Origin: an uncultured bacterium | GTDB taxonomy: Bacteria; Patescibacteriota; Minisyncoccia; Moranbacterales; GWC2-37-73 | Reading direction: 5' to 3' | Length of the DNA: 59,101 nucleotides | Assembly (NCBI GenBank): GCA_903885965.1 | Contig: CAISKQ010000057.1 | Location: 1-59,101 of the forward strand | In this document: positions 1 to 16,146 of the stretch, one piece after another | How the letters are laid out: each line of letters begins with the position of its first letter | Position numbering within the stretch: position 1 is the first letter of the stretch | The notes under the pieces: model-generated | Told to the model about the DNA's origin: nothing | Databases searched by the model: none | Seen by the model: only the letters and a program-made list of their open reading frames with translations | Program-made: the position numbers and the translations under genes

Positions 1-65
1 AAATGGAAACCAACACAGCGACAAAATTAATCTTGATAGTAAAAAAAAGCGAATCTAATATTGGA

Positions 66-136
66 GAGCCGGATGCGGGAAAACTGCTTGTCCGGTTCAA
101 CTAGGGGTTTCAGATGAGAGTCTAGGAATCTACTAT
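66..136 (+). mobile_element. 3' end of a group II intron (domains V and VI)
   Basis: 66-98 GAGCCGGATGCGGGAAAACTGCTTGTCCGGTTC fits domain V (AGC triad, 2-nt bulge). 102-135 folds as domain VI with a GAGA tetraloop and bulged A132. The exact 3' splice site is uncertain (~136-138). Confidence 0.8.
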
Positions 137-176
137 AAAAGAAGAAGGTTAGTGAAAAATATTATTTTCAATTATT

Positions 177-8560: not shown

Positions 8561-9646
8561 ATGAGCTTTCTAAATAAAAAAATTTGTAGTAATTCTTCCA
8601 GTATATTCGGACTTGATTTGAGTGACCTTTCGGTTAAGCTTATTAAGTTTGAGAATAATGGTGTGGAAGAGAAAATTGTCAGCTATGGATGTGTGTCTCT
8701 GCCAGTTGGCGCCGTGAGTGATGGTGAGATAAAAAAGAAAGAACAGATTGTGGTGGCAATAAAAAAACTTATTGAAACTTCAGGACCAAAAAAAATAAAA
8801 ACGAAAAAAGTTATCTGTAGCCTTCCTGAGACAAAAGCTTTTTTGCGAATTATAAGTATTCCAAAAATGAATGATAATGAAATAGGCGAAGCTGTTAAAT
8901 GGGAAATGGAAGCGAACATTCCGTTGCCGCTCGAACAGGTTTATTACGATTGGCAAATCGTTACTGAGGCCCTAACTACGGAAAAAAACAAAATAAATCT
9001 ATTAGTCGTTGCAGTGTCAAAAACAACAGTGGACGAAACCATAGAGGTTATTGAGATGGCAGGACTTGAAGTTGTTGGGCTGGAGATAGAATCAATTGCG
9101 CAATCCAGGAGTCTCCTTTGCTGCGATGACTACAAAAAAACAGTTTTGATAGTTGATATTGGAGATAGAAGAACGAGCTTTTCAATTTCAAAGGAGGGTG
9201 TTCCATGTTTTACTTCCAGTGTTCCCCTTAGTGGACAATCTCTTTCTGATGTCATCGCTAAGGGAATGGGTATTTCATTTGAGGAAGCTGAAAAAATAAA
9301 ACTAACCCACGGTATCGGCTGTGATCCTAAAAATGATTCTTTGTTCAAGTTAGTAGAACCAGTTCTTGAAAGTTTTTCTCAGGAGATAGAAAGATCGATA
9401 AATTTTTATTTATCAGGATTGGGATACTCAAAAAATATTGATAAGATAATTATTTGCGGTGGAGGTGCGAATACAAAGGGAATTGTGCCATATCTATCAA
9501 AAAAGTTAGGACGAGAGATTCAACCTGGAAATCCATGGTCGAATGTAAATTTAGGAAAAAAATTGCCAATTATTGAAAAAAGTCAATCATTGCAATATTC
9601 AACAGCTATAGGTTTAGCATTAAAAGCACTCCAATATGAAGATTAG
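8561..9646 (+). CDS. pilM: Type IV pilus alignment protein PilM
   Basis: FGLDLSD, IVDIGDRRT, ICGGGA, AIGLAL actin-like PilM motifs. Confidence 0.93.
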   Translation: MSFLNKKICSNSSSIFGLDLSDLSVKLIKFENNGVEEKIVSYGCVSLPVGAVSDGEIKKKEQIVVAIKKLIETSGPKKIKTKKVICSLPETKAFLRIISIPKMNDNEIGEAVKWEMEANIPLPLEQVYYDWQIVTEALTTEKNKINLLVVAVSKTTVDETIEVIEMAGLEVVGLEIESIAQSRSLLCCDDYKKTVLIVDIGDRRTSFSISKEGVPCFTSSVPLSGQSLSDVIAKGMGISFEEAEKIKLTHGIGCDPKNDSLFKLVEPVLESFSQEIERSINFYLSGLGYSKNIDKIIICGGGANTKGIVPYLSKKLGREIQPGNPWSNVNLGKKLPIIEKSQSLQYSTAIGLALKALQYED

Positions 9647-10190
9647 TCTTGATTTGCTTCCTCAAAACAAAAAAGATGAAATACGAAGAAGTAAATTTTT
9701 TCGTGAACTTTTGCGTACGGAGATATTGTTCTTTTTTCCTATTTTAATTCTCATCGTTATTTTAATTAATGTGCTATATCTGTTGAAGATTCAGCAAAAT
9801 GGAAGTATTGCAGACTATGAATTTCAGCAGAATCAAAGTCAATATCAAGAGTTGGATAAATACGACAAGAATTTTAAAGCTATAAATGAGGCTACTGGTT
9901 TTTTGATAAAAATTCAAAATGGACATTTGCAATGGTCAACCGTCTTGAACCATTTGAGTCAGGTTATTCCAAGTGGTATTGTTATAAATAATTTTTCCAA
10001 TAAGAACTATGACATTTATTTGACTGGGCAGGCCAAAACCCGCGATAAACTGCTTGAATTTAAGGGTAATCTAGAAAAGGATGCATGTTTTGGAAAAATT
10101 AATGTCCCACTCTCAGACCTTGTTGTTAAGGAGAATGTTGATTTTCAAATGGATTTCAATGTTAGCCAGGATTGTTTGAGAAATAAATAA
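9636..10190 (+). CDS. pilN: PilN-like protein
   Basis: N-terminal ISLDLLP (variant of INLLP), one TM, coiled coil, LTGQA; overlaps pilM. Confidence 0.85.
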   Translation: MKISLDLLPQNKKDEIRRSKFFRELLRTEILFFFPILILIVILINVLYLLKIQQNGSIADYEFQQNQSQYQELDKYDKNFKAINEATGFLIKIQNGHLQWSTVLNHLSQVIPSGIVINNFSNKNYDIYLTGQAKTRDKLLEFKGNLEKDACFGKINVPLSDLVVKENVDFQMDFNVSQDCLRNK

Positions 10191-10302
10191 ACAGCGAATA
10201 ATTCAGGATGATTTTATTTATTAGCATGAAAATTTTCTGTGGGATGCAGGTTGCTTGAACTAAAAAAATAGCGAGCGTTTAAATCATTTTTTATATTCTT
10301 AG

Positions 10303-11001
10303 ATGACAAAATTTCTAAAAAATCAACGAGAACTTGTTGTGCTAGCACTATTTTTTGTTGTGATTGGTGGGCTTGGGTATTTTGTCATTATGCCGCTATT
10401 GAAAAGTATTACGCTTGTCAGGGATGGAATACAGGAGGAAGCCATTAAACAAGACATAAGAAGGCAAAAACTAAATGAACTGCCAAAGATAAGGGAACAG
10501 TTTGCAAAAATTAATAATCAACAAAATAAAATAGATATACTACTTAGTAAGGATCAGGCAGTTGTTTTGATTGAGCGATTGGAGAAGCTCTCTCAAGATA
10601 CGGGTAATACAATAGTAATTTCGATTAATGATGGTCTGCAACAAGCAGCTAATCCAGCCCTTGCTAAAGCAGGCTCAGCAACAGCTAACTTGGTAGAGTC
10701 ATTGCCAAGCAATGACTATTTGAAATTAACAATTTCTTTGACTGGGGACTACGATGGACTTTTTAAATTCATTAGTGGCCTAGAAACGTTTGAATATTAT
10801 GGTGATATTATTGGTATTAATATTAGCCACTCAACTGATAGTGGCTTGCCATCCGCGGCCGGTGCAGCGCCGATTAATGGAGTTCTGAATCCATTTAATG
10901 CCCAATTAACACCTGGCGCATCTTCCACAAATACCGCAGCCAAGCAAAATGGCAGCAAATTGGATACCTCGTTGGAAGTAGTTTTTTATACTAAAAAATA
11001 A
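10303..11001 (+). CDS. pilO: PilO-like protein
   Basis: N-terminal TM, coiled coil, ISLTGDYDGLFKFISGLE PilO-type motif; position after pilN. Confidence 0.75.
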   Translation: MTKFLKNQRELVVLALFFVVIGGLGYFVIMPLLKSITLVRDGIQEEAIKQDIRRQKLNELPKIREQFAKINNQQNKIDILLSKDQAVVLIERLEKLSQDTGNTIVISINDGLQQAANPALAKAGSATANLVESLPSNDYLKLTISLTGDYDGLFKFISGLETFEYYGDIIGINISHSTDSGLPSAAGAAPINGVLNPFNAQLTPGASSTNTAAKQNGSKLDTSLEVVFYTKK

Positions 11002-11008
11002 TAGCTAT

Positions 11009-11326
11009 ATGAAAATTTTCACCTTCACAGATTTTAATAAATCAAATGTCATTTCAATCGTGGAATCTTTCCGGAGAAAGATATATCGAGTTATATTTTT
11101 TTTATTGCTTTTGGCGTCAATTTTTTTCGGAGGATATATTTGGCATCAAAATTTATATTCTTCAACATGGACAGCCGATAGAGTGCAGGAGTTTGTAAAT
11201 ACTCAGGATAAGGGAATTGTTTTTAATGAAAATAATTATAAAAAAGCACTTGATATTATAGGCCGTCGTAATCAGGAAAACGCTAAGTCGCCAAGTGCTG
11301 GAAGTGACTTCTTTGTCGGCTACTAG
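11009..11326 (+). CDS. Small single-TM hypothetical protein, last gene of pilus operon
   Basis: 105-aa ORF 7 nt after pilO, one TM. Confidence 0.7.
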   Translation: MKIFTFTDFNKSNVISIVESFRRKIYRVIFFLLLLASIFFGGYIWHQNLYSSTWTADRVQEFVNTQDKGIVFNENNYKKALDIIGRRNQENAKSPSAGSDFFVGY

Positions 11327-11400: not shown

Positions 11401-12165
11401 TCATTTTTGTTGGTTGGTTGTTTTCCAGACAAGCTTGAAAATTTGTTGCATTACGTCAGCGATATCTGGGTTTTCAATCAAAATTCCTTGCAAGTAGCGA
11501 TGTGAAATTATCTGCGTAAAATTGTCATAGACTTCAAGGGAAATATTGCTGGAATAATCTTTTTCAATAAGTGTCCTTAAATCCATTTTTAATTTCTTTT
11601 TTGTTTCTGCTGCTAAATAGTTTTTAATTGATGGGTGGAGAGTTGTGATTGCTGTCCTTTTTATGTTATTTTTTGCGTAGTCATCGTTTAATTGTAACCA
11701 GTATTCCTGTAGAAAATTGGGAGTGTGTTTTTGATGAGCATAAAAAGCAATAAAAGATCTTTCAGGAAGAGGTTTCTTTTGCATTTTGGCGATAAGCTGG
11801 TCATACATTTTTTTAATTCCTTCAAATCCCTCAAAATACGCAACGCTAACTTTTTCATCAGCTTTCTTTTGAATTGCCAGTAGCTCTGGCAGCATTTCTT
11901 TGGTGGCAGATAACTTTTCTTGAGCAATGGCAATACATTCACGTGGTGATTTGGCAATGAAATAATGTTTGTCTGCCTGGGGAATCTTAAGGGCAAATCC
12001 TTTAGAAACTAAGTTATCCAGAACAACATAAGCGGTGGCATTTTTCAGCTTGCTTCTGATTCCAATGGTGTAGGCCGTTGCTCTTTCCAAACCTAAAAGT
12101 GCCAAATAGACACTGGCTTCCTTTTCATTTAGGCCTAAATTCAAGAGTGATTCTGTTAATTCCAT
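11401..12165 (-). CDS. TrmB-family transcriptional regulator
   Basis: LGLNEKEASVYLALL wHTH, YFEGFEGIKKMY, C-terminal GILIENPDIA. Confidence 0.9.
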   Translation of the reverse strand: MELTESLLNLGLNEKEASVYLALLGLERATAYTIGIRSKLKNATAYVVLDNLVSKGFALKIPQADKHYFIAKSPRECIAIAQEKLSATKEMLPELLAIQKKADEKVSVAYFEGFEGIKKMYDQLIAKMQKKPLPERSFIAFYAHQKHTPNFLQEYWLQLNDDYAKNNIKRTAITTLHPSIKNYLAAETKKKLKMDLRTLIEKDYSSNISLEVYDNFTQIISHRYLQGILIENPDIADVMQQIFKLVWKTTNQQK

Positions 12166-12351
12166 AAATCAAGCCTAGCAAGTTTTCATTAATTAGTCAA
12201 TAAATATGATGACTATGAGATATTAACTTAAAAATAGGCTTAAAAAAGCTATAAAAGATAAAATATTAAATCACTAAAGTTGATTATATTTGTATTTCAG
12301 CTTAATAATTAAGCTATTAGTTGATTTAACAATTTACTGTCGGAGGGTATC

Positions 12352-13479
12352 ATGGAAAACTTTGCAATGAATTTGTGGCTCGAATATATTATTGGGAAAT
12401 CTGAAAAAGATGATATTGGAGAAATGTATGCCCAATTAGCAAGGGAATTGCCAAAAGTAATGTCTGTGGTGGCAACGCGGCATTGCAATTTGCAGTGCAA
12501 GCATTGCATTTTTCAAAAAGAGCGGCAATATTTTTTCAATGGAGCTGCTCTAGAAATCGCAGTAAAAACTATTGTTAGCCAAATGTTGCCTAATCCAATT
12601 GTTGTGCATGAGGGTCGAATTTTTGAGCCGAAACATTTAAGTTGGCTTCAGGCAATTCGTCAAATCAGACCAGATAACAAAATTGGAATGATTGATAATG
12701 GCTCATACGCTACGCATATTAGCAAAATTAAATTAGCCGGCTTTAAATTTGATTGGCTGGACATTTCAGTAGATGGCCCAAAAAGAATTCATAATTTTCA
12801 AAGAGGTTCCAAAGATTCTTTTGAAGTAGCGATTAATGGCATCAGAAATGCGCAGAAAGTTTTGACAGCAGACGGTGAAGTAAATTCCTTGATGACGCTG
12901 ACGAAAATAAATTATGCTTCAGTGCTGGAAACTTGTAAAACACTTCCTAAGCAAGTAAGCCAATGGCATATCGCAACTATCACACCAACTAGGGCTGAGT
13001 TAAAGAAATTAACTTTAAGCGAAAATGAATTTAAAATTAGTTGGAATCAAATCAAGTTGGCAAATGTTTTGAGAGTTGTTGTCTTGAAGATTTATGAAGT
13101 CAGTGACATGTTGAAATTGGCTAAAGCTGTTGGTGGCGTAAAATTTTTTGAAGCATTTGAAAAAGCTCAGATGGGATTTTCATCTGTAAATTTTGTGCTT
13201 GAGGGAGTTTTGGTACGTTATTTTCCACAGTCGATGGCACCAAAAGAAACTTTCGTGCTTGATGGTGGAGTTTATCGCGTGCCGTATTATGGAATTTCTC
13301 ATACCCTAGCGGAATTAAATAGGGAAGAGTTAGAGAAATATACAATTGGGAAAGTAACTGCAGAAAGTAATTTCCGCTTGTTATATGAAGAGTGTGTGAT
13401 AGGGTGGCGAGAAAATTTTTCTCGGGAAGCTTTCAAGGAAGAAGCTTTTATTTTTCAACAAATCAAAAATTTACAATAA
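12352..13479 (+). CDS. Radical SAM enzyme without SPASM/Twitch domain
   Basis: CNLQCKHC (CxxxCxxC), IDNG, ISVDG..HNFQRG; SD GGAGGG upstream. Confidence 0.9.
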   Translation: MENFAMNLWLEYIIGKSEKDDIGEMYAQLARELPKVMSVVATRHCNLQCKHCIFQKERQYFFNGAALEIAVKTIVSQMLPNPIVVHEGRIFEPKHLSWLQAIRQIRPDNKIGMIDNGSYATHISKIKLAGFKFDWLDISVDGPKRIHNFQRGSKDSFEVAINGIRNAQKVLTADGEVNSLMTLTKINYASVLETCKTLPKQVSQWHIATITPTRAELKKLTLSENEFKISWNQIKLANVLRVVVLKIYEVSDMLKLAKAVGGVKFFEAFEKAQMGFSSVNFVLEGVLVRYFPQSMAPKETFVLDGGVYRVPYYGISHTLAELNREELEKYTIGKVTAESNFRLLYEECVIGWRENFSREAFKEEAFIFQQIKNLQ

Positions 13480-13493
13480 AGGGGGTGATTAAA

Positions 13494-13565
13494 ATGTCAG
13501 GAGCTAACACTGGATCGAAAGGCTCAAGAAACGGTGGCGCAAACACCGGAAGCGTTGGAAGCTGA
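13494..13565 (+). CDS. 23-aa Gly/Ser-rich peptide MSGANTGSKGSRNGGANTGSVGS (candidate RiPP precursor)
   Basis: ATG 14 nt after the rSAM stop, SD GGGGGTGA at 13481-13488, GANTGS repeated with different codons, terminator immediately after. Confidence 0.75.
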   Translation: MSGANTGSKGSRNGGANTGSVGS

Positions 13566-13567
13566 GT

Positions 13568-13611
13568 AAATAGGGAATGCGTAAATAATTATGCGCGTTC
13601 CCTATTTTTTT
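13568..13611 (+). terminator. Intrinsic terminator of the rSAM-peptide operon
   Basis: AAATAGGGAATGCG...CGCGTTCCCTATTT stem plus T tract. Confidence 0.85.
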
Positions 13612-13653
13612 ATACAACAAAAAACCCAGATGAAAATCGGAGTTTTTTCTTTG

Positions 13654-13727
13654 TGCGCTCTGAGGGATTCGAACCCCCGACCTTCTGGTTCGAAGCCAGA
13701 CACTCTATCCAGCTGAGCTAAGAGCGC
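13654..13727 (-). tRNA. tRNA-Arg(UCG)
   Basis: Cloverleaf GCGCTCT/AGAGCGC, anticodon loop CTTCGAA, GGTTCGAATCC. Confidence 0.95.
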
Positions 13728-13807
13728 GTGTCGAAATTGTAATTTTTTGATTCTTTCGTATTGAATTCTTCGAAATTCAATTTTTAGATTTTCTTAAACT
13801 AAAACTG

Positions 13808-13880
13808 GGCGATCACAGGGAATCGAACCCTGGTTCTCGGTACCACAAACCGATGTCTTAACCGTTAGACGATGATCGCC
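13808..13880 (-). tRNA. tRNA-His(GUG)
   Basis: G-1/C73, anticodon loop TTGTGGT, GGTTCGATTCC. Confidence 0.95.
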
Positions 13881-13898
13881 ATACATAATAAAATCCTG

Positions 13899-13970
13899 TA
13901 CCCCCACCAGGAATCGAACCTAGATCTTCAGCTTAGAAGGCTATTGCTCTATCCGTTGAGCTATGGGGGC
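13899..13970 (-). tRNA. tRNA-Arg(UCU)
   Basis: GCCCCCA/TGGGGGT acceptor, anticodon loop CTTCTAA. Confidence 0.93.
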
Positions 13971-13996
13971 AAATTTCTCTTCTGGTGAGAGAATTG

Positions 13997-14069
13997 TGGG
14001 TTATGCAGGATTCGAACCTGCGACCATTGGCTTAAGAGGCCACTGCTCTACCAACTGAGCTAATAACCC
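13997..14069 (-). tRNA. tRNA-Lys(CUU)
   Basis: GGGTTAT/ATAACCC acceptor, anticodon loop CTCTTAA. Confidence 0.95.
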
Positions 14070-14170: not shown

Positions 14171-15484
14171 CTAGGTTGCTTTAGCCATATCTTTAAGCAT
14201 TTTTTTGTAGTTTTTCCATTCCTCATCTGACCAATTCGATGGTTTGGCACTTAAAACAGGTCCACCTGGATGAGGATATCGGTATGGAGAATTATAAGAA
14301 CTATTAAACACGTCATTTATGATTTCTTTGCCATCTTTGTCAAAAACATGCTGAGTAAAGGATGCCTTTAATGCACCGTCAGGTTGTCGCTCAGTAATGG
14401 TTGGCCCGTCAACAGTTGTTTTTCTTCCATCATCACTGCCATAAAAACTGAAAGTTAAAGTAGTCCCGACTATTTTTGTCTGAATGAGGATATATCCGGG
14501 CGTATTATTTTTAAAGCGAAGGTCTGGTCGCGGAACATAAACTGTTGAGTCCATTCCCTGGGGATTGTAATAAGACACCGGATAGGCATGGTTTTTGCGG
14601 GCAGTAATCTTTAGTCCTGAATAAATGGCCGCACGAAAAGCTGTTGTTGAAACCTGGCAAATTCCTCCGCCAAATTCTGGTTCGGTCACATTATTCTTAA
14701 TGACCAACTCTGGAAGATAGCCATGGTCACCATCAACTTCACCAAGAATATCTACAAATGAGAATTCCTCTCCTGGTTTAATGAGAAGTCCATTGTATCT
14801 TTCAGTTGCTACTTTGATGTTATGCACTCTGTTTACAGGGGAGCCTTTAAAGTTTGAAGTGCCTTCTCCGATAAGCGCAGATACGCCAAGGTCATTTACC
14901 TCGGCATAGTTTATTTCCGGTTTTTTTGAAGCGTAGTCTAATGAAATTTGTTGTGGAATTGTGACTAAATTTAAAGCGTCAATAATTTTTTGCGTACTTT
15001 TCTCAACGTCAAGAGTTATTCCGTCTTGTGCTTCAGCAAAAGTTGATACTTTTCCATCCGTTACTGTGAATTTTGCATCTGTTGGATCATGGTTTATTTT
15101 TCTTGCTAAATCTTCCAAATATGACTTTATTGAATTTTTATCCACGAAAGTTTCTGACTTGAGTTGCAGGTGATTGCGCCACCCAGTACTCATGGTTAAG
15201 TCGCAGAATATATTACTAACAGGACAATAAGAGGTGTTCTCAACTTCAGTTTTATAATTCGGAGATAATCCCAAATTTGATTTTTGTCTTAGCCATTTAG
15301 CAATGGTATCCCCGGAGATATCTTCCGAATATTTATCAATAGAAACCGTCAACGCTTTTGATTGCGCCACGGTGTTAGCAACTTTTGGCGGCTGAGTTTC
15401 AGCTGCCAATGCTGCGGTTTGCGTGCTAAGAAAAAACACAACAAACAAACAAAAATATTGCCTAGTATTCATGTCCTTAAGCAT
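14171..15484 (-). CDS. VanW-family exported protein with PG-binding-4-like region
   Basis: Signal peptide; NRVHNI, GGGICQVSTT, DLRFKN VanW motifs. Confidence 0.9.
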   Translation of the reverse strand: MLKDMNTRQYFCLFVVFFLSTQTAALAAETQPPKVANTVAQSKALTVSIDKYSEDISGDTIAKWLRQKSNLGLSPNYKTEVENTSYCPVSNIFCDLTMSTGWRNHLQLKSETFVDKNSIKSYLEDLARKINHDPTDAKFTVTDGKVSTFAEAQDGITLDVEKSTQKIIDALNLVTIPQQISLDYASKKPEINYAEVNDLGVSALIGEGTSNFKGSPVNRVHNIKVATERYNGLLIKPGEEFSFVDILGEVDGDHGYLPELVIKNNVTEPEFGGGICQVSTTAFRAAIYSGLKITARKNHAYPVSYYNPQGMDSTVYVPRPDLRFKNNTPGYILIQTKIVGTTLTFSFYGSDDGRKTTVDGPTITERQPDGALKASFTQHVFDKDGKEIINDVFNSSYNSPYRYPHPGGPVLSAKPSNWSDEEWKNYKKMLKDMAKAT

Positions 15485-15609
15485 ACCGCAATTGCTGGAA
15501 TATTACAAGAATTAAAGACTTAATGATGGGCCTCTCGATGGGTCCTCGTGGTTTAAGCAAAAAAAAGAAAGCCTTGCGACTTTCTTTTTGAAAAAATTTT
15601 TTGGAACAA

Positions 15610-16146
15610 TTAGAATCCTCGGACTTGGATTTTTTTGATTTTGGTAACATCAGCCTTCGGCAAACGAATTGTCAAAATTCCGTTTTTCAGTGAAGCCTCA
15701 GCTTTGTCGGAGATGATATCAACAGGAAGCACAACGCTGCGAGAGAAAACTCCCCAATAGCATTCTTGATAGTAATAGTTTTCACCACTAACTACTTCTT
15801 CATTTTTTCGCTCACCTTTGATGGTGACCATGTCGTTATTGATTGAAACATCTAAGTCTTCTGGTTTTACCCCTGCGATTGTGGACTTAATGACAACTTC
15901 ACTTTCGGTTTGGTAAACATCAATAGTTAGTTGCCCTTCCGCGTCATTTGAAGAGGTTGTTTCCTCCTCGAAAACATTGAAGTTTCTGTGCCCACCACCC
16001 AGGCTTGAAGAATCTCTATTATTCATAACCATTTCTGTTTCCTCTTCTTCTGCATAAATAGGCATTGAAGATTCACGCATATTATTCGAATCAACGGACG
16101 AGGCGCCAGTTACTCTTTCGAAAAATGATTTTTTTGTTTTTAGCAT
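15610..16146 (-). CDS. Small heat shock protein Hsp20
   Basis: IDVYQT, AGVKPEDLDV, FSRSVVLP, ASLKNGILTIRLPK, IQV tail. Confidence 0.95.
   Translation of the reverse strand: MLKTKKSFFERVTGASSVDSNNMRESSMPIYAEEEETEMVMNNRDSSSLGGGHRNFNVFEEETTSSNDAEGQLTIDVYQTESEVVIKSTIAGVKPEDLDVSINNDMVTIKGERKNEEVVSGENYYYQECYWGVFSRSVVLPVDIISDKAEASLKNGILTIRLPKADVTKIKKIQVRGF

Follow-up and report, generated by a model that had tools for sequence, protein, structure and literature searches.

A radical SAM enzyme encoded beside a short peptide with an ANxGSxG core: an unnamed RiPP-like family in candidate phyla radiation bacteria

Bottromycin exemplifies the follower-peptide type of RiPP (a ribosomally made peptide with post-translational modifications): its core is N-terminal, right after the initiating methionine, and its recognition segment is C-terminal. 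The yyd operon, which includes a protease and an ABC exporter, encodes the radical S-adenosylmethionine (SAM) enzyme YydG, which acts on a short ribosomal peptide, YydF, at aliphatic Cα positions and forms no crosslink. According to its description (PMC5682303), YydG has a cysteine hydrogen-atom donor, Cys223, and an additional C-terminal [4Fe-4S] cluster. TvgB and its precursor TvgA, which yield a poly-cyclopropylglycine RiPP, were discovered by genome neighbourhood analysis; the report on them (J Biol Chem 2022, PMC9062424) describes a radical SAM (rSAM) enzyme taken from a screen of an rSAM subfamily whose members hold as many as three [4Fe-4S] clusters, together with a small precursor made of a short repeated Gly-rich motif (TVGG) that contains neither Cys nor aromatic residues. 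A later abstract (PMC10878394) terms TvgB an RS-SPASM enzyme. Here we describe an rSAM gene followed by a gene for a 23-residue peptide in a 59,101-nt contig (CAISKQ010000057.1, assembly GCA_903885965.1) of an uncultured bacterium of the Moranbacterales (Patescibacteriota, GWC2-37-73); the whole contig is referred to below as the window. The pair belongs to a real, unnamed rSAM-peptide (RiPP-like) family. In our judgement the two genes probably constitute a dedicated enzyme-substrate unit with a local regulator, in which an N-x-G-S segment of the peptide core would be radically modified in the enzyme barrel.

The TvgA/TvgB system is the nearest analogy to this pair in its logic, and YydG is the nearest solved relative by sequence. 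The pair resembles TvgB and TvgA in that an rSAM enzyme stands beside a small peptide built on a short repeated Gly-rich motif without Cys or aromatic residues. In contrast to the multi-cluster subfamily from which TvgB came, the enzyme described here has one cluster motif, and the peptide core, A-N-x-G-S-x-G, has no Val to cyclopropanate; no sequence model linked the Tvg family with the rSAM-peptide family. The likeness to YydG and YydF lies in a small operon whose rSAM enzyme would act on a short ribosomal peptide at aliphatic Cα positions, but neither the Cys donor nor the second cluster of YydG is conserved here, and the window differs from the yyd operon in having no protease and no exporter. 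The arrangement of the peptide is that of bottromycin-type follower RiPPs, with the core at the N-terminus after Met and a putative recognition segment C-terminal to it, although the enzyme classes are unrelated and the follower role is suggested here by a predicted complex and by repeat units. We found no literature on the family or its core motif, although supplementary lists of predicted rSAM-peptide families may contain it, and no curated NCBIfam or Pfam model and no source annotation names the pair. The family combines an unusual single-cluster enzyme that has no RiPP recognition element (RRE) with an ANxGSxG core without Cys or aromatic residues and a core-first layout.

In the window, the rSAM stop codon (TAA, 13477-13479) and the ATG of the peptide open reading frame (ORF) at 13494 are separated by a gap of 14 nt (13480-13493) that contains AGGGGGTGA, and the peptide stop codon occupies 13563-13565. 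The two copies of GANTGS are encoded differently (GGA GCT AAC ACT GGA TCG versus GGC GCA AAC ACC GGA AGC), and a hairpin resembling an intrinsic terminator would close the rSAM-peptide transcription unit. An earlier note on this DNA, made from the letters alone, had called attention to an unannotated 23-residue ORF 14 nt past the rSAM stop, with a strong Shine-Dalgarno (SD) sequence, a terminator and two differently encoded GANTGS copies, and direct reading of the sequence confirmed each of these points. Its remark that most genes in the window lack an SD sequence roughly holds: an SD-like 4-mer was present 5' of 3 of 42 long ORFs, the rSAM ORF being one of the three, when positions were counted from longest-ORF starts, which are uncurated and may differ from the true starts. 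The host organism thus seems, from sequence, to initiate translation mostly without an SD sequence, while the rSAM gene and the micro-ORF each have a strong one.

The peptide remains adjacent to the rSAM gene through changes in gene order, as judged from a set of 33 loci on one-genome-per-species contigs and 56 on metagenome contigs. Translation of the DNA 3' of the rSAM stop codons revealed ORFs starting M[SAT]GANTGS[AK]G in many loci. With a strict six-frame pattern, the core motif was detected in 45 of 90 sources, always within a small ORF beside the rSAM gene and, everywhere except in L065, on the rSAM strand. Loci without a downstream copy had variant peptides between the rSAM gene and the divergent gene for a TrmB-like protein (for example MTANTGSAGKGR, MCEAGANAGSAGRGRK and MPTANSGSAGKSRK, and MAGANAGSTFRGKP in L013). 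Removal of 9 duplicates left 56 distinct family loci, and a relaxed core match was present on the rSAM strand between -1000 and +450 nt of the gene in 41 of them. The relaxed core gave 61 matches in 68,380 adjacent codon positions versus 9 in 713,606 positions elsewhere, counted in six frames, which is a roughly 70-fold greater density; four of the nine matches elsewhere were further copies of the peptide (one in L021, two in L025 and one in L065). When these outlying copies and the variant cores of L026 and L070 were included, a peptide was found beside the homologous rSAM gene in 46 of the 56 distinct loci. The remaining 10 are cut off on a flank: seven stop at or inside the 3' end of the rSAM gene, and in three the upstream DNA is shorter than 81 nt and the downstream flank is missing. 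Among the 56, no locus was found in which both flanks are present and the peptide is absent. This search for micro-ORFs beside rSAM homologs was the test by which the earlier note had proposed that its pairing of enzyme and peptide could be refuted, and the pairing withstood it. On the rSAM tree, the position of the peptide (upstream or downstream of the enzyme gene) requires 6 changes, compared with a mean of 17.1 after shuffling. A ribosomally encoded, precursor-like peptide gene is co-located with a modifying-type enzyme across the family.

The ORF could in principle be a chance open frame, or a conserved RNA element (an attenuator, for instance, or a portion of the terminator), rather than a peptide gene. 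It is very short, it was missed by the gene track, it is not among the called proteins of a 15-billion-protein collection, and no Rfam or Pfam family covers it. Against this stands the comparison with L001, the closest relative, whose rSAM enzyme is 88% identical to that of the window: 11 peptide codons differ, all of them synonymously, the 11 nucleotide changes all fall at codon position 3, and the sole indel is the in-frame deletion of one codon. The DNA directly 3' of the peptide stop, unlike the ORF, is heavily diverged between the two. The peptides of L015 and L051 differ by 9 synonymous and 2 non-synonymous codons, and two paralogous peptides in L022 by 11 synonymous and 3 non-synonymous codons. 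The ORF is therefore under purifying selection, as judged from these substitutions, in agreement with the conservation at the protein level that the earlier note had read from the differing codons, and the peptide is probably translated. Of the 68 distinct candidate peptide ORFs in the loci, a list that includes a few obvious false positives, 54 have an SD-like element in front of them, and the protein motif is kept in candidate phyla radiation (CPR) bacteria and in unrelated phyla across fully diverged DNA. The enrichment of the motif beside the rSAM gene and the synonymous substitution pattern effectively refute the reading as a chance frame or RNA element, to which we assign next to no probability. 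Five of 10 peptides that were looked up are called proteins in public collections, all of them nameless. A profile search with the peptides retrieved 37 small proteins of 28-66 aa, 32 of them at E ≤ 1e-3, which are unnamed or labelled 'hypothetical protein' and in which no Pfam domain was found.

In an alignment of 18 peptides, two of them from a sister family described below, A4, N5, G7, S8 and G10 of the core A-N-x-G-S-x-G are invariant. The core starts at residue 3-4, so that there is no leader, and the peptides range from 19 to 66 aa across the system. In most CPR peptides the core is followed by a stretch that is basic and rich in Pro (for example ..QQNP[KR]PVKK..), and many consist of two to four units of 'core + NP[KR]PVK'. 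Such repeats are what would be expected of a multi-core precursor whose recognition segment is of the follower type. The peptides of the window and of L001 are unusual in having two cores and no basic follower. A contig labelled Nanoarchaeia (L012, 1549-1668; duplicate L048) carries a family rSAM gene with an upstream variant peptide, MPNLNCGSHAQVVNAQAINTGSHAQSTDSKPMPADHTEEE, in which a His follows each core and the tail is acidic rather than basic. The string GSxGxGK, present in many of the peptides (for example at L030 5068-, L015 5118- and L029 5100-), resembles the Walker-A or P-loop string G-x4-G-K; the residue that follows it is mostly P or L, not S or T, and the likeness is probably a coincidence.

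The enzyme is a member of the radical SAM superfamily by its match to PF04055 (34.4 bits, cutoff 29.5). PF04055 is its only Pfam match and the cluster motif starts at residue 45, and a B12-binding N-terminal domain is absent. The CxxxCxxC motif (C45-x3-C49-x2-C52) is invariant in 38 of 38 aligned homologs. The window enzyme has cysteines at positions 45, 49, 52, 195 and 348, and only the first three are invariant across these homologs, which bears out the earlier note's description of a SPASM-less enzyme with CxxxCxxC and no C-terminal Cys cluster. The next most conserved Cys column in the CPR family is that of C195, at 58%; in the sister family one Cys reaches 96%. An AlphaFold2 model made with the family alignment (mean predicted local distance difference test score, pLDDT, 92.0; predicted template modelling score, pTM, 0.91) begins with a pair of short N-terminal helices, which are followed by a partial barrel in which strands and helices alternate (residues 36-210), by a C-terminal domain (243-334) made up of helices and short strands, and by a long terminal helix (341-373). 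The C-terminal domain is Cys-free and family-specific. Enzymes of the rSAM superfamily usually carry a SAM-binding GGE motif at the end of strand β2. In the model, the sequence HEGR (86-89), with invariant E87-G88-R89, lies at the end of strand β2 (83-89), and by this position it may be the equivalent of GGE.

No NCBIfam model came close to its cutoff with the enzyme; the best partial matches (1.7e-11 to 1e-6) were to SPASM-domain peptide maturases and their relatives (NirJ, TIGR04133, HxsB, WgkB, DynA and anSME) and covered the N-terminal rSAM core only (residues ~35-240). This resemblance to peptide maturases speaks for a peptide as the substrate. The scores were far below the curated cutoffs (for example 43.6 bits versus 425), and unlike SPASM-domain maturases the enzyme has no Cys-rich C-terminal SPASM domain. 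The closest PDB entries by sequence were YydG (E 2e-4, over ~100 N-terminal residues) and anSME (E 0.009), and the ESM Atlas returned generic rSAM clusters only. Assignments of the enzyme to the SPASM/twitch maturases, the YydG-type epimerases and the B12-dependent rSAM enzymes were rejected, since the features that these memberships require were not found. A word-indexed protein search gave 42 clusters homologous to the enzyme, all from metagenome-derived bacteria and named, where a name was given, 'hypothetical protein', 'radical SAM protein [Patescibacteria group bacterium]' or 'MoaA/NifB/PqqE/SkfB family'. When 1.84 billion representatives were searched exhaustively with a profile of the enzyme family, 81 proteins reached E ≤ 1e-30 and 203 reached E ≤ 1e-10. 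Within the phylum the enzyme family was present in 2 of 401 sampled genomes, one of which (G391) was not counted as independent of the locus set. The module is rare and patchy within the phylum, and its rarity argues against a housekeeping cofactor role.

The match to YydG, which is the best among PDB sequences though weak and limited to the N-terminal ~100 residues, raises the alternative that the enzyme belongs with the peptide epimerases of YydG or proteusin type and converts residues of the GANTGS core to the D-form. A core that offers no Cys or aromatic residue for crosslinking agrees with this, and a single-cluster enzyme may favour a redox-neutral outcome. YydG, however, works with the Cys donor and additional cluster mentioned above, whereas in this family the CxxxCxxC triad provides the only invariant cysteines; moreover, two of the five invariant core positions are Gly and hence achiral. 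We regard an epimerase of this type as unlikely. Neither standard crosslinking logic nor standard epimerase logic is a clean fit, because there is neither an auxiliary cluster nor a conserved Cys. Since the enzyme has a single cluster and no conserved Cys donor, the most likely outcome is a redox-neutral one, either epimerisation in which the hydrogen donor is not Cys or an intramolecular link or rearrangement in which Asn, Gly and Ser take part, although this could well be wrong; epimerisation on the one hand and a crosslink or rearrangement on the other seem to us equally possible, neither of them probable by itself, and the rest of the expectation falls to something else. Epimerisation, which the earlier note had suggested, thus stays among the options while its usual hallmarks, a conserved Cys hydrogen donor and a second cluster, are absent.

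We examined the predicted complex of enzyme and peptide with the pair from L002, whose enzyme is 53% identical to that of the window and whose peptide has 35 residues; the window's own 23-residue peptide falls below the 30-residue guideline of the co-folding tool. With a [4Fe-4S] cluster and SAM included, the interface score (ipSAE) was 0.88, 0.87 and 0.87 in three runs, and the best of 3 controls scored 0.00. Of 80 solved complexes, 58 reach the mark that this pair passed, as do 2 of 110 mismatched pairs. The co-fold suggested in the earlier note was therefore positive for a homologous pair. The peptide partner had a pLDDT of 65-70, and 76% or more of the contacts agreed between runs. In the model, contact with the enzyme extends over peptide residues 2-21; the invariant D140 (D137 in the window enzyme) contacts G7 and S8 of the peptide, and peptide residues 12-20 run beside the N-terminal helix and residues 275-283 of the enzyme. 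The 51 interface residues include 11 of the 39 invariant enzyme columns, compared with 5.1 expected (p 0.007). The model supports binding with the core in the barrel; what it predicts is binding, not catalysis.

In the mechanism that we propose, the rSAM enzyme would bind the small ribosomal peptide encoded beside its gene and place the invariant N-x-G-S segment in the barrel that holds SAM and the [4Fe-4S] cluster. SAM would be cleaved reductively, and abstraction of a hydrogen atom within N-x-G-S would start a radical modification; we infer both that the peptide is modified and that the site lies in this segment. In most members, the basic Pro-rich follower after the core (..NP[KR]PVK..) may serve as a recognition handle that rests on the N-terminal helix and on a strand of the Cys-free C-terminal domain, and in the clade of the window a second copy of the core would replace it.

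A prediction of binding would also suit a real small protein, co-transcribed with the rSAM gene, that binds the enzyme without being its substrate, for instance an accessory or activating subunit or a small basic protein that binds nucleic acid or the ribosome and is coupled to the enzyme in expression only; in that case the enzyme would act on a small molecule or on some other protein. Most members do have basic Lys/Arg/Pro-rich tails that resemble nucleic-acid-binding tails, the enzyme is without the SPASM and RRE hallmarks of RiPP maturases, and the location of the sister family in an importer operon, described below, means that an imported compound could be the substrate. The conservation, however, resides in the short Gly/Asn/Ser core and not in the tail, which is absent from the peptides of the window and L001. 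The cores are repeated two to four times per peptide, which is typical of a multi-core precursor and odd for a subunit, and it is the core, not the tail, that the model puts in the barrel beside invariant residues. We consider a non-substrate role improbable, more so than an epimerase of the YydG type.

Several observations weigh against the interpretation of the pair as a maturase and its substrate. No protease or exporter gene was found among the genes of the window near the pair. In the alignment of 38 homologs no cysteines of a SPASM or twitch auxiliary cluster are conserved C-terminally, PF13186 gave no match to the enzyme, and the census of cysteines revealed no conserved Cys hydrogen donor outside CxxxCxxC. 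An RRE has a beta3-alpha3 fold as defined in PMC12710340, and the ~35 residues in two helices that precede the cluster loop leave no room for one. In the sister-family peptides of L074 and L084, His takes the place of the core Asn, and because of this Asn may not be the universal reaction site. The evidence from the co-fold has its own restrictions: its calibration is only roughly valid when, as here, custom alignments for both chains and small molecules are used; the pair modelled is a 53%-identical homolog instead of the window's own; the window peptide is without the follower segment, whose contacts are the most confident ones; and the enrichment at the interface is lost when nearly invariant columns are added (14 versus 10.5 expected, p 0.14). 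We nevertheless favour the dedicated enzyme-substrate unit at the strength given at the outset. The earlier note was correct for the window in stating that the core has no Cys or aromatic residues, that there is almost no leader and that neither a protease nor an exporter is nearby. Of its proposal of a new RiPP class, the part that pairs the rSAM enzyme with a precursor-like peptide is supported by the data presented here, and the modification itself is the conditional part.

Weaker matches to the enzyme, at 25-31% identity, were found in metagenomes and on contigs that bear the labels Brocadia, Desulforudis and Cohaesibacter, and a second search for this sister family added Jettenia and Scalindua. 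The sister and CPR enzyme families align with an hhalign probability of 99.9% (E 1.6e-34) over 362 columns that include the C-terminal domain. Peptides of the form N[ST]GSxG[KRN]GK, for example MIMNLGANSGSAGKGKPKK or M..NSGSVGRGK.., follow the sister rSAM gene in 13 of 19 loci by pattern, L081 and L082 among the 19 being duplicates. Inspection by eye added four further loci (ANLGSLGRGK, ANLGSANRGK and two with HSGS[RK]GKGK), and the remaining two are truncated. None of six weaker rSAM loci from outside the family had a peptide with the sister-type pattern. The sister rSAM gene and its peptide are embedded in a complete ABC importer operon of the Opp/Dpp type, which encodes an ATPase with an oligo_HPY domain, two permeases and a substrate-binding protein of family 5, for which Opp4A, DppA and NikA gave the best partial matches. 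Just upstream of the sister rSAM gene is a gene for a conserved protein of ~240-250 aa (L075 2314-3066; L083 3190-3906; L081 3201-3914), 51% identical between L083 and L075, for which no Pfam match, no NCBIfam match and no ESM Atlas match at ≥ 0.9 was found; it could be a partner protein.

Because the sister family sits in an importer operon, the product may, by analogy, be a molecule that is released and re-imported, such as a signal or a carrier. We offer only tentatively, and with less than even expectation, a broader proposal of undescribed rSAM chemistry, in which a single-cluster enzyme without SPASM domain or RRE would act on a near-N-terminal Asn/Gly/Ser core with the aid of a C-terminal follower, and the product would be a re-imported signal or a metal or nutrient carrier. 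Such a product would explain both the Opp/Dpp/Nik-type importer operon of the sister family and the TrmB-like wiring in episymbiotic CPR bacteria.

The divergent TrmB-like protein is most likely the transcriptional regulator of the rSAM-peptide unit. It has a TrmB-type winged helix-turn-helix (HTH) domain by its match to PF01978 (48.7 bits, cutoff 25.6), and a profile of its family matched TrmB (3qph, 6.2e-9) and TrmBL2 (5bqt, 1.1e-6) in the PDB, with the matches confined to profile positions 3-123 in the N-terminal part. It shares the N-terminal winged HTH with TrmB and TrmBL2 but differs in its C-terminal domain, which is not of the TrmB sugar-binding type: that domain gave no match, Pfam gave nothing beyond the HTH, and the NCBIfam scores were 18.8 bits for TrmB (cutoff 600) and 16.6 bits for TrmBL2 (cutoff 530). 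The C-terminal domain of ~150 aa is specific to a family that is widespread in the phylum, occurring in 176 of 401 sampled genomes, often in 2-6 copies. The TrmB-like gene formed one homology cluster in 48 of the 65 family sources examined, 9 of the 65 being duplicates. It usually lies upstream of the rSAM gene in divergent orientation, at a distance of 110-200 nt, or of 460-790 nt when the peptide gene lies in between. The protein is conserved over its full length, sometimes more than the enzyme (75% versus 53% identity in L002). Most simply read, one paralog of a regulator that is common in CPR bacteria was taken over for the local control of a rare accessory module. BLASTP detected no relation between the TrmB-like protein and the ~240-250-aa protein of the sister operon.

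The sequence at 12299-12315, AGCTTAATAATTAAGCT, is a perfect palindrome of 17 bp, ~37 nt upstream of the rSAM start codon. Neither L001 nor the other loci conserve it. In the intergenic regions between the TrmB-like and rSAM genes, AT-rich palindromes were present but none was common between loci, and no shared operator was found. In L001 (3051-3814, which equals G004:C23:27911-28659), the TrmB-like gene consists of two overlapping ORFs that cover profile positions 2-132 and 124-244, the result of either a frameshift or an assembly error.

Table 1. Features of the rSAM-peptide locus in the window.
Feature	Position	Strand	Basis
TrmB-like winged-helix regulator, 254 aa, divergent from the rSAM gene	11401..12165	-	PF01978, E 6.7e-13
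Intergenic region between the divergent genes, 186 nt, presumed promoters	12166..12351	.	promoter-like sites predicted
Radical SAM enzyme, 375 aa	12352..13479	+	PF04055 above cutoff; AlphaFold model
Shine-Dalgarno-like GGGGGTGA, ending 5 nt 5' of the peptide ATG	13481..13488	+	sequence read
23-aa peptide gene, MSGANTGSKGSRNGGANTGSVGS, two GANTGS cores, putative rSAM substrate	13494..13565	+	sequence, homologs, selection
Intrinsic-terminator-like hairpin, 16 pairs, then T-run	13568..13607	+	sequence prediction
tRNA-Arg(tcg), first of four tRNA genes	13653-13727	-	

The features of the locus are collected in Table 1. Past the peptide terminator, the four tRNA genes form a cluster on the minus strand (13653-14069) in the order Arg(tcg), His(gtg), Arg(tct) and Lys(ctt). 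In the comparison of L001 with the window, the alignment that follows the peptide extends to the edge of the first of these genes. The earlier note had placed the module as an islet next to a tRNA gene; that location is correct, and composition lends no support to a mobile island, the G+C content being flat at 0.33-0.42 throughout the window, the rarity and patchiness of the module in the phylum notwithstanding. The flanking genes, at 8561-11326 and 14171-16146, are unrelated to the module and are not conserved beside it in other loci: PilM and PilN, of type IV pilus assembly, and two proteins of no family are encoded upstream, and a VanW-like protein and Hsp20 on the other side. At the extreme start of the window (64-138, plus strand), Rfam gave a match to a group II catalytic intron (RF00029, 41.5 bits versus a gathering score of 40).

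Peptides modified by rSAM enzymes are a rich source of new enzyme chemistry and of bioactive molecules. Systematic mining for them has leaned on SPASM-type enzymes, the screen reported in PMC9062424 having been directed explicitly at a multi-cluster subfamily, and the family described here lies outside that net. The invariant core is a ready handle for searches, and the system is small, with one enzyme and one peptide. Its module occurs in minimal-genome CPR bacteria, from which very few specialised products are known, and its sister family occurs in anammox bacteria.

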